From Alphaproteobacteria bacterium (GTDB lineage Bacteria; Pseudomonadota; Alphaproteobacteria; CALKHQ01), in contig CBDDFZ010000001.1 in NCBI GenBank assembly GCA_965227515.1, forward strand, positions 32,001-96,000: a stretch of DNA of 64,000 nucleotides, read 5' to 3'. This document shows positions 52,956-54,187 of the stretch, one piece after another. The notes under the pieces are model-generated. The model saw only the letters and a list, made by a program, of their open reading frames with translations. It was not told where the DNA came from and searched no databases. How positions within the stretch are numbered: position 1 is the first letter of the stretch; each line of letters starts with the position of its first letter. The position numbers were made by a program, and so were the translations under genes.

Positions 52956-53074
52956 CGCGCTGTATAGCAAAACCGGCCCGAAGGCCGAATCGTCTTGTCA
53001 GAACAAGAGCTTGTGCGAGCTGAGTCGCGCTAACGCGCGAACATTCAAGTCGGCACCGGCCCTTGTATCTCATT

Positions 53075-53237
53075 TTGTGGCCGCTGCGGTTATTGTAGCG
53101 GTGGCGGAGACGGGTGGGAGGCCGCAAGGCCCTTGGTCTCGAAGACCGTGGGAGAGCTTGGCACCCTGCCTGTTGTTCCAATGAACCCGAACAGTCGCTT
53201 GGTCCGCCGGGCGAGACCGCATTTGCAAGGACGGGTG
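53075..53237 (+). ncRNA. Predicted bridge RNA (5' hairpin, target-binding loop, donor-binding loop)
   Basis: Guides GGCCCT (53128-53133), GGGAGAG (53150-53156), ACAGTCGCTTG (53191-53201) and TGCAAG (53224-53229) sit in internal loops closed by GGGTG/CACCC and ACCCG/CGGGT stems; RNA ends approximate. Confidence 0.8.
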
Positions 53238-54170
53238 ATGGAACAGGTTTTCGTTGGCATTGATGTCTCGAAGGCGCGGCTCGACGTGCATGTCTTGCCG
53301 TCCGGCCAGAGCTTTGCTGTCGCACGAGACGGCGATGCTCTGGCAAGTCTTGTCGAGGACCTGGCCGGGCTGTCGCCGGGCCTGATCGTGCTGGAGGCGA
53401 CTGGCGGCTACGAGGTCACGGTGGCAGCGGCGCTGGCCACTGCCGGACTGCCGCTGGCCGTGGTCAACCCGCGCCAGATCCGGGACTTCGCGCGTGCCCT
53501 TGGCCTGCTTGCCAAGACCGATGCGCTAGATGCCAAGGCGATCGCGCTGTTTGCCGAGCGGGTCCGGCCCGAACCTCGGCCGCTGGCCGACGCCCAGACC
53601 CAGGTGCTCAGCGAGCTGATCGCCCGCCGGCGCCAGATCGTCGTCATGATGACCGCCGAGCGCAATCGCCGCAGCCAGCTCACCAGCCGACGCATGGTCA
53701 AGAGCGTCGACCGCCTGCTGGCGGCCCTGCAGAAAGAACTCTCCGCCCTCGAACGCGAGCTCGATGAGACGATCCGCGGCACACCAGCTTGGCGCGAGGA
53801 CGAAGACCTGCTCAAGAGCGTGCCTGGTGTCGGCGATATCACCGCCCGTGCGCTGATCGCCGACCTACCCGAACTCGGACGTCTCGACCGAAAGAAGATC
53901 GCTGCCCTCGTCGGCCTGGCGCCGTTCAACAGGGACAGCGGTACCATGCGCGGCAAGCGCACCATCCGTGGGGGACGGCGTCATCTGCGCACAACCCTCT
54001 ACATGGCAGCCTTGGTCGCCAGCCAACGGAACCCGATCCTCAAGGCCTTCTATCAACGCCTGCTCCATGCCGGAAAGCCAAAGAAGCTCGCGCTCGTCGC
54101 CGTCATGCGCAAGCTCCTCGTCATCCTCAATGCCATCATCAGAGATCGGACCCCATGGCAAAACGCTTGA
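53238..54170 (+). CDS. IS110 recombinase/transposase (DEDD RuvC-like plus Tnp domain), 310 aa
   Basis: GIDVSK, LEATG, KTDALDA, SVPGVG, GLAP...SG, A.MRKL. Confidence 0.95.
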
Positions 54171-54187
54171 CACAAAAGACAGTCGCT
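54167..54187 (+). promoter_or_regulatory. Outward-facing -35 (TTGACA) that forms a junction promoter on circularisation
   Basis: The circle junction reads TTGACA-caaaagacagtcgCTtg (17 nt)-TATCTC. Confidence 0.75.

Follow-up and report, generated by a model that had tools for sequence, protein, structure and literature searches.

A 64,000-nucleotide (nt) stretch of DNA from an Alphaproteobacteria bacterium (assembly GCA_965227515.1, contig CBDDFZ010000001.1, positions 32,001 to 96,000), referred to here as a whole as the window, was analysed. The source genome comprises 5.5 Mb in two contigs (C1 and C2) with a GC content of 66.7%. The analysis showed that window positions 53064-54185 are occupied by an insertion sequence (IS) of the IS110 group, 1122 bp long, with a CT core dinucleotide flanking each end (Table 1). 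Its layout is that of the IS110 group, with a left end (LE) of 174 nt, a right end (RE) of 15 nt and CT at both ends in each of four genomic copies; a long left end and a short right end are the reverse of the arrangement in the IS1111 group (Durrant et al., PMC11208160). Assignment to the IS1111 group, in which the RNA lies in a long right end and subterminal inverted repeats are long, was considered and rejected, given that RE has only 15 nt and that the RNA model matches LE, no formal inverted-repeat search having been made. The element very probably moves by bridge-RNA-guided recombination in the manner of IS621, with a palindromic repeat of the host as its target. This reading is preferred because of the recombinase domains, the similarity of the recombinase to those of IS621 and ISCro4, the four copies at one and the same site, a covarying three-domain RNA and the covariation of guides with flanks, and on these lines of evidence the proposal of a first-pass annotation, made from the sequence alone, that an IS110/IS621-type element here carries a bridge RNA targeting a repeat of the host was upheld.

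Examination of the recombinase showed an N-terminal RuvC-like DEDD domain (PF01548, 3.2e-22, residues 6-146) and a C-terminal Tnp domain (PF02371, 4.7e-22, residues 190-273). The only solved structures matching the protein were those of the ISCro4 (PDB 9t56, 9.9e-40) and IS621 (8wt6, 4.5e-37) recombinases, over residues 3-307. The catalytic residues were counted along the alignment to the IS621 chain, whose numbering is the native numbering plus 2. The result showed that D9, E53, D95 and D98 correspond to D11, E60, D102 and D105 of IS621 and that S234, in an RDSG motif, corresponds to the catalytic S241; the roles of these IS621 residues are given by Hiraizumi et al. (PMC11208158). By alignment, therefore, D9, E53, D95, D98 and S234 are the catalytic residues. 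The first-pass annotation had named the DEDD residues, which do align, together with the serine of an SVPG motif; SVPG is present at residues 195-198, but its serine, S195, is distinct from S234, which takes the catalytic position.

Relatives of the element were collected by scanning one genome per species, which yielded 283 stretches encoding relatives; the best 80 were kept, and among these the closest, from uncultured Alphaproteobacteria, showed 75% identity. A covariance model, R1, was built from 10 left ends. In almost all of the relatives, R1 located the RNA immediately 5′ of the recombinase gene; there were 111 matches in 88 sources, of which the 86 of at least 130 nt were kept, and at E <= 1e-6 there were 48 matches in 49 sources. 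A covariance-model search had been proposed as a check in the first-pass annotation, and it places this RNA upstream of related recombinases. In the 48-sequence alignment, 90.9% of cells paired, compared with 68.7% in shuffled alignments and 32.5-43.9% when the partners were slid, and both-side changes occurred in 32 of the 38 base pairs; the observed values were reached in none of 500 shuffles.

The predicted RNA comprises a 5′ stem-loop, a target-binding loop and a donor-binding loop, with the guide segments listed in Table 1. The 5′ hairpin had been annotated at 53081-53101; it is present, and spans 53080-53102 in the minimum-free-energy (MFE) fold. Within the target-binding loop, the distal hairpin is formed by GGTCT/AGACC (53135-47). 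The fourth base of the left target guide (LTG), G 53128, stands opposite A in those repeat arms that begin with AGCC, where it would form a G:T wobble with the bottom strand. In the donor-binding loop, ACAGTCGCTTG lies at 53191-53201, and UGCAAG (53224-29) is complementary, one G:T wobble included, to the core and the four bases that open the element. All of the loop sequences noticed in the first pass (GGCCCT, GGTCT/AGACC, GGGAGAG, ACAGTCGCTTG and TGCAAG) were present in the window as claimed.

Table 1. Features of the IS110-group element and its host repeat, in window coordinates
Feature	Position	Strand	Details and evidence
Host repeat, outer part and start of left arm (left target, LT)	53045..53061	.	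consensus of 191 sites; flanks of 4 copies
LT part matched by LTG	final 4 nt of 53045..53061	.	GGCC
Left CT core dinucleotide	53062..53063	+	CT at both element ends in 4/4 copies
LE (174 nt), predicted to encode the bridge RNA	53064..53237	+	covariance model R1: 178.3 bits, E = 1.9e-55
Right donor (RD)	from 53064	+	TGTATC, opening bases of LE; sequence
Weak -10-like hexamer TATCTC	53066..53071	+	would pair with right-end -35 only in circular form
Bridge-RNA 5′ stem-loop	53080..53102	+	MFE fold; helix 1: both-side changes in 6/6 pairs, 48 sequences
Target-binding loop domain	53106..53174	+	basal stem, internal loop, distal hairpin 53135-53147; fold; helix 3 92.7% paired, 13/14 pairs covarying
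LTG	53125..53133	+	last 6 nt GGCCCT (53128-33) equal LT plus core
Right target guide (RTG)	53150..53156	+	GGGAGAG, reverse complement of core and 5 nt of right target
Target-loop handshake guide	53157..53158	+	C 53157 complementary to G 54185, donor position 7
Donor-binding loop domain	53186..53235	+	basal stem CCCG/CGGG, internal loop, distal hairpin 53201-53218; fold; helices 6 and 7 92.7% and 91.6% paired
Left donor guide (LDG)	53191..53199	+	ACAGTCGCT, equal to last 7 nt of element plus core
Right donor guide (RDG)	53221..53229	+	AUUUGCAAG; CAAG pairs with core and TG; G:T wobble; UU would flip out as in IS621
Donor-loop handshake guide	53230..53231	+	G 53230 complementary to C 53061, target position 7; window sequence
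Recombinase gene, 310 amino acids (aa)	53238..54170	+	PF01548, PF02371; intact in 4/4 copies
-35 box TTGACA	54167..54172	+	overlaps stop codon
RE, 15 nt	54171..54185	+	sequence; flanks of 4 copies; RTG-located ends of relatives
Left donor (LD)	within 54171..54185	+	ACAGTCG, final 7 nt of RE
Right CT core copy	54186..54187	+	sequence; 4 copies
Host repeat remainder	54188..54262	.	right target CTCCC, rest of left arm, loop, right arm 54224-54247, outer part; repeat consensus

The genome was found to contain four intact full copies of the element, 1126 nt long and 99-100% identical. Among them 13 positions vary, none of which lies in a guide segment, and the reading frames are intact in all four. 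Each copy is flanked by [GA]GCC-CT on the left and CT-CTCCCCCACCCGGCC on the right, and all four are inserted at the same CT within one arm of a palindromic repeat, two of them in GGCC arms and two in AGCC arms; the outer flanks of the four loci differ on both sides. The left flank type [GA]GCC-CT is also shared by a 52-nt left-end remnant and by one diverged remnant, in accordance with the suggestion in the first pass that other genomic copies would sit at the same target. The repeat itself has ~95 copies in the genome. Its consensus, derived from 191 arm sites, is ~80 bp long and has two arms around a variable loop, and every palindrome carries one GGCC arm and one AGCC arm. The sequence GCCCTCTCCC occurs 191 times, preceded by G in 88 cases and by A in 93, so that the uninterrupted target 11-mer is present 181 times (88 as GGCCCTCTCCC and 93 as AGCCCTCTCCC), compared with ~16 expected from composition. 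When the element and one CT were excised in silico, a complete repeat copy was regenerated. The empty target that had been reconstructed in the first pass is not hypothetical, because the uninterrupted site is abundant in the genome and removal of the element restores the repeat.

The label 'REP' is used here as a descriptive one for this repeat. REPs are imperfect palindromes dispersed in many copies, usually but not necessarily associated with a Y1 transposase (RAYT). Such a link was looked for: PF01797 matches the genome at two places, and no repeat copy lies within 1.5 kb of either. An Rfam 15 scan of 52500-54800 at permissive thresholds gave six sub-threshold matches and none at the gathering score. 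Four of the six were microRNA-precursor models on the repeat hairpin, which is explained by the long hairpin that the repeat forms.

Several loci carry further traces of the element. The two copies in AGCC arms (L003, C2:1183025-1184216; L004, C1:3321336-3322527) are identical and have the same repeat remainder on their right, whose loop occurs twice genome-wide, both times adjoining these copies, and their outer flanks differ; gene conversion into the repeat, or co-mobilisation of the repeat remainder with the element, would explain the shared loop. The 52-nt remnant (C1:3870892-3870943) is a solo fragment of the left end, joined directly to the outer portion of a repeat, and resembles a deletion scar. 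The diverged remnant (C1:1500199-1500289) is the ~115-nt remainder of a relative with 82% identity over the first 91 nt; it retains the target loop, with a left guide that agrees with 7 nt of the flank of this remnant.

No orthologous empty site was found among 20 relatives searched: the neighbouring gene was present at 66-70% identity in three genomes of the same family and, with a weaker match, in five others, and the three same-family loci inspected are without a repeat copy, the one that was read through having a different neighbour. The element also occurs, ~99% identical, in contigs of four runs from four studies. Two ~1125-nt skips seen in contigs were considered as traces of excision at this locus and rejected; their shorter side is only 20 nt, and empty copies of the repeat at other places in the genome are the best explanation for them.

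A perfect -35 box, TTGACA, at the right end and a TATCTC hexamer at the left end would lie 17 nt apart if the two ends were joined. Of 33 distinct related ends, 27 have a -35 box with at least five of six matches at this distance. Excision has been described as rebuilding a promoter across the core (PMC11208160). No promoter was called in the integrated copy.

It is conceivable, although we consider it unlikely, that the architecture is as described but the element is dormant, its four copies being relics whose similarity is due to gene conversion and not to recent transposition. The weak -10 and the lack of a called promoter in the integrated copy would fit dormancy, as would the truncated and the decayed left end elsewhere in the genome and the two identical subtype-2 copies, whose doubly occurring repeat loop resembles conversion into the flank. 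Against this, reading frames and guide segments are intact in all four copies, three substitutions private to the window copy either preserve pairing or fall in a hairpin loop, the outer flanks of the four loci differ, and the near-identical element recurs in the four studies mentioned above. To call the element active, as the first-pass annotation did, was an overstatement; its four near-identical intact copies, the one basis for activity, suggest that it may be. Transcription of the LE RNA, its binding by the recombinase, circle formation and the chemistry of strand exchange are what we infer from the IS621 literature.

The correspondence between guides and flanks was analysed across 32 distinct guide sets, defined as those for which both ends and an open reading frame of 270 aa or more could be located; where a set had several copies, the flanks of the first copy were used. 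The core is CT in 31 of the 32. In one fixed register, the five non-core bases of RTG matched the cognate right flank perfectly in 26 of 32 sets, and in 30 of 32 when wobble was allowed, compared with a non-cognate mean of 1.65 of 5; the observed sum was reached in 0 of 10000 permutations. For LTG, the cognate match was 3.94 of 6 compared with 2.88 for non-cognate flanks, again reached in 0 of 10000 permutations, a weaker but significant result; targets are C-rich, and four registers were allowed. LDG was analysed in the 35 of 49 distinct sets in which the right end was found via an exact RTG match. The result showed that LDG agrees with the last 9 nt of the element at 7 or more of 9 positions in 34 of the 35, the right end having been located through RTG alone. 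In all 33 sets, the handshake base of the target loop is able to pair with the base that ends the left donor (27 G:C, 5 A:U and 1 G:U), and it switches to U in the five sets in which that donor base is A. The match of RD in relatives was judged by eye. The one set with an AT core (L008, a second IS110-group element of the same genome) scored low in the guide-flank and LDG tests, for the sole reason that its loop is one base shorter and its register accordingly shifted. The bridge-RNA reading has thus been computationally shown for this clade, beyond mere analogy, because the RNA model and the guide-flank, LDG and handshake tests agree.

These tests bear directly on two other readings of the left end. 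According to one, LE serves only as a 5′ untranslated leader controlling translation of the recombinase, the target and donor matches being coincidental. A likely ribosome-binding site, AAGGA (53227-31), does lie inside the 3′ strand of the donor loop, just 5′ of the ATG, and the modest fold z-score given below would suit such a leader. This explanation is nevertheless extremely improbable, as guide-flank covariation was not equalled in 10000 permutations in either of two independent tests, and LDG and handshake covariation are concordant with it. A regulatory role alongside guiding may exist, but it leaves the covariation unexplained.

According to the other, the site is chosen mainly by a recombinase that recognises the repeat stem-loop, to which the RNA loops add a short match, so that reprogramming would be limited without a hairpin. 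Every insertion does occupy the base of a hairpin arm that is long and perfect, the LTG match is 4-6 nt only, and for ISPpu10 the target stem-loop is reported as a second specificity determinant (2026 preprint, 10.64898/2026.03.19.712850). However, among relatives with differing targets, only some of which are hairpins, RTG changes together with the right flank at the level of single bases, and in relatives with nine copies the sequence is variable beyond a 7-nt match. Recognition mainly of the stem-loop is therefore judged quite improbable, and guidance by the RNA loops is preferred.

Relatives from several phyla (L011, L016, L042, L061 and L069) were observed to insert in or beside hairpins built on CCCTCTCCC...GGGAGAGGG, and the RTG GGGAGAG is common to seven distinct guide sets. 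The IS lineage seems to track a single type of GC-rich palindrome that is widespread.

Five observations weigh against the bridge-RNA reading of the window element. The fold energy of LE is modest (z = -2.03), with 8 of 200 shuffles as good or better. The structure counts lean towards the structure, the alignment behind them having been fitted to the model. LTG has only a short match, of 4 nt plus the core, or 3 nt plus a wobble in AGCC arms, and part of the target specificity may reside outside it. The -10 hexamer matches the consensus at only three of six positions, and a promoter rule would not call it. Finally, the right-side repeat loop that two of the four copies have in common is found nowhere else in the genome, and these two may not be fully independent simple insertions.

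Under the bridge-RNA reading, the element would excise as a circle, in which the right-end -35 TTGACA and the weak left-end -10, 17 nt apart, would drive a left-end RNA of ~160-175 nt. In this RNA the 5′ hairpin would be followed by the target-binding and the donor-binding loop. The target loop would read 4 nt of left target and CT on the bottom strand and, on the top strand, CT together with 5 nt of right target; the resulting 11-bp site would be [G/A]GCC-CT-CTCCC, which at the base of each arm of the ~95-copy palindrome would offer ~180 potential sites. The donor loop would read the last 7 nt of the element and CT, and CT and the first element bases with one G:T wobble. The DEDD/Ser recombinase (D9, E53, D95, D98 and S234) would then exchange strands at the CT core.

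A more specific proposal, which we regard as doubtful, is that this lineage uses a shifted guide economy, both arms of the palindrome, a possible hairpin determinant, and sequence exchange with, or carrying of, the adjoining repeat. The G of the short left guide would tolerate A or G, and the longer right guide would reach into the hairpin stem; one RNA could in this way serve both arms of ~95 repeats, with the repeat hairpin as a second, structural determinant. If true, the lineage would be a natural case for studying the trade-off between guide length and structural gating, and the remodelling of used repeats.

Apart from any such specialisation, the element adds a well-resolved natural bridge-recombinase system from a high-GC bacterium, in which the guides, both handshake positions and the putative split promoter are directly readable and the ~180 genomic target sites are open to comparison. 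The 32 related guide sets amount to a natural series of reprogrammed guides, small but in keeping with the published rules, and may aid the choice of orthologues for editing GC-rich genomes.

Other IS110-family genes were observed in the genome, which has 27 PF01548 matches in all. The second IS110-group element, to which the L008 set belongs, is present in two copies (regions C1:1350462 and C1:1793268) with an AT core. It has a bridge-RNA-like left end of its own, with R1 matches of 26-27 bits; its flanks, ..ATGG-AT and AT-CCTC, match its own loop strands, and its right end too has TTGACA at 17-nt spacing. A third IS110-family recombinase gene occurs in 21 places (e.g. C1:392354-392791), with open frames of 270-372 aa. 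The 12 copies inspected have a common left boundary followed by unrelated flanks, which are not the repeat. In the window, the gene 5′ of the insertion (50742-52970, minus strand) encodes a 742-aa protein which, from a reading of its translation alone, resembles a class A penicillin-binding protein and has a long, very basic N-terminal tail with repeated KRTTA-like units.

A weak match to the Rfam family sX15 (RF02234) was found at window positions 53104-53244 on the minus strand (26.4 bits compared with a gathering score of 55, E = 0.1). The family is a multi-copy RNA of Xanthomonas and Stenotrophomonas. In the 2011 Xanthomonas paper (PMC3300014), sX15 and asX7 are described as complementary and plasmid-borne, with 10 homologues in Stenotrophomonas. 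The idea that sX15 is an antisense of an IS110 left-end RNA was unsupported, since 10 related loci gave no match at E <= 0.01.

Bridge RNAs were first described in 2024 for IS621 of Escherichia coli (Durrant et al., PMC11208160; Hiraizumi et al., PMC11208158), and the mechanism, a preference for REP elements and thousands of predicted orthologues are in print (PMC11208160). The window element matches IS621 in every feature testable here and does not alter what has been established on the mechanism. The two recombinases have both Pfam domains in common and their five catalytic residues align, although the proteins are only distantly alike (E = 4.5e-37). The order of the RNA parts, from 5′ stem-loop through target loop to donor loop, is the same, in an LE of 174 nt here and an RNA of 177 nt in IS621. 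In IS621, LTG and LDG read the bottom strand and RTG and RDG the top strand, with the core in all four (PMC11208160), and the window element has IS621-like strand logic and a CT core. For the IS621 RDG, A157, U158, U159, U160, G161, C162 and G165 are named, with G161 wobble-paired to T and both U159 and U160 flipped out (PMC11208158); at every position named there the window RDG has the same letter, with the wobble G in the same place and two U before it. A wobble at the fourth LTG position (G53:T in IS621) and a handshake pairing, the concept of which comes from the same paper, at position 7 are common to both elements, as is the targeting of a repeat, and the window element has a candidate for a promoter split across the joined ends like that of IS621. 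The window element has a shorter left and a longer right target guide than IS621. The target is [GA]GCC-CT-CTCCC here and ATCAGGC-CT-AC in IS621 (PMC11208160), so that 4 nt to the left and 5 nt to the right of the core are paired here, whereas IS621 pairs 7 to the left and 2, extendable to 5, to the right. The last two bases of the left donor also differ, and the host is a high-GC bacterium, unlike that of IS621.

Among other described elements, ISCro4 provides the best solved-structure match (PDB 9t56, E = 9.9e-40, residues 3-307), a comparison of the proteins alone. The closest named IS found was ISMno7 of Methylobacterium nodulans (RefSeq annotation, plasmids NC_011892 and NC_011887), with 58.4% aa identity over residues 4-308, which, as a protein comparison, falls well short of what two copies of one element would be expected to show. 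The protein cluster of the recombinase has three members and is unnamed, and the description of the element as uncharacterised in the first-pass annotation is accordingly plausible, with the qualification that the orthologue tables of PMC11208160 and 10.1101/2025.05.14.653916 may already list it. ISPpu10 and ISPpu9 of Pseudomonas putida are REP-targeting IS110 elements which, like the one described here, reside in palindromic repeats, in their case intergenic ones; they belong to a different lineage (10.64898/2026.03.19.712850, PMC12288879). The nearest comparison is with the loci L011-L018 and L020-L031 from uncultured Alphaproteobacteria, whose recombinases show 73-75% aa identity to that of the window element. 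Their RNAs have the same architecture (R1, 184-192 bits) and their donor loops are identical to that of the window element or differ by one base (L016), whereas their target guides and targets differ, e.g. CCCCT-CACCC and CACCT-CTCCC, which makes these loci natural 'reprogramming' controls.

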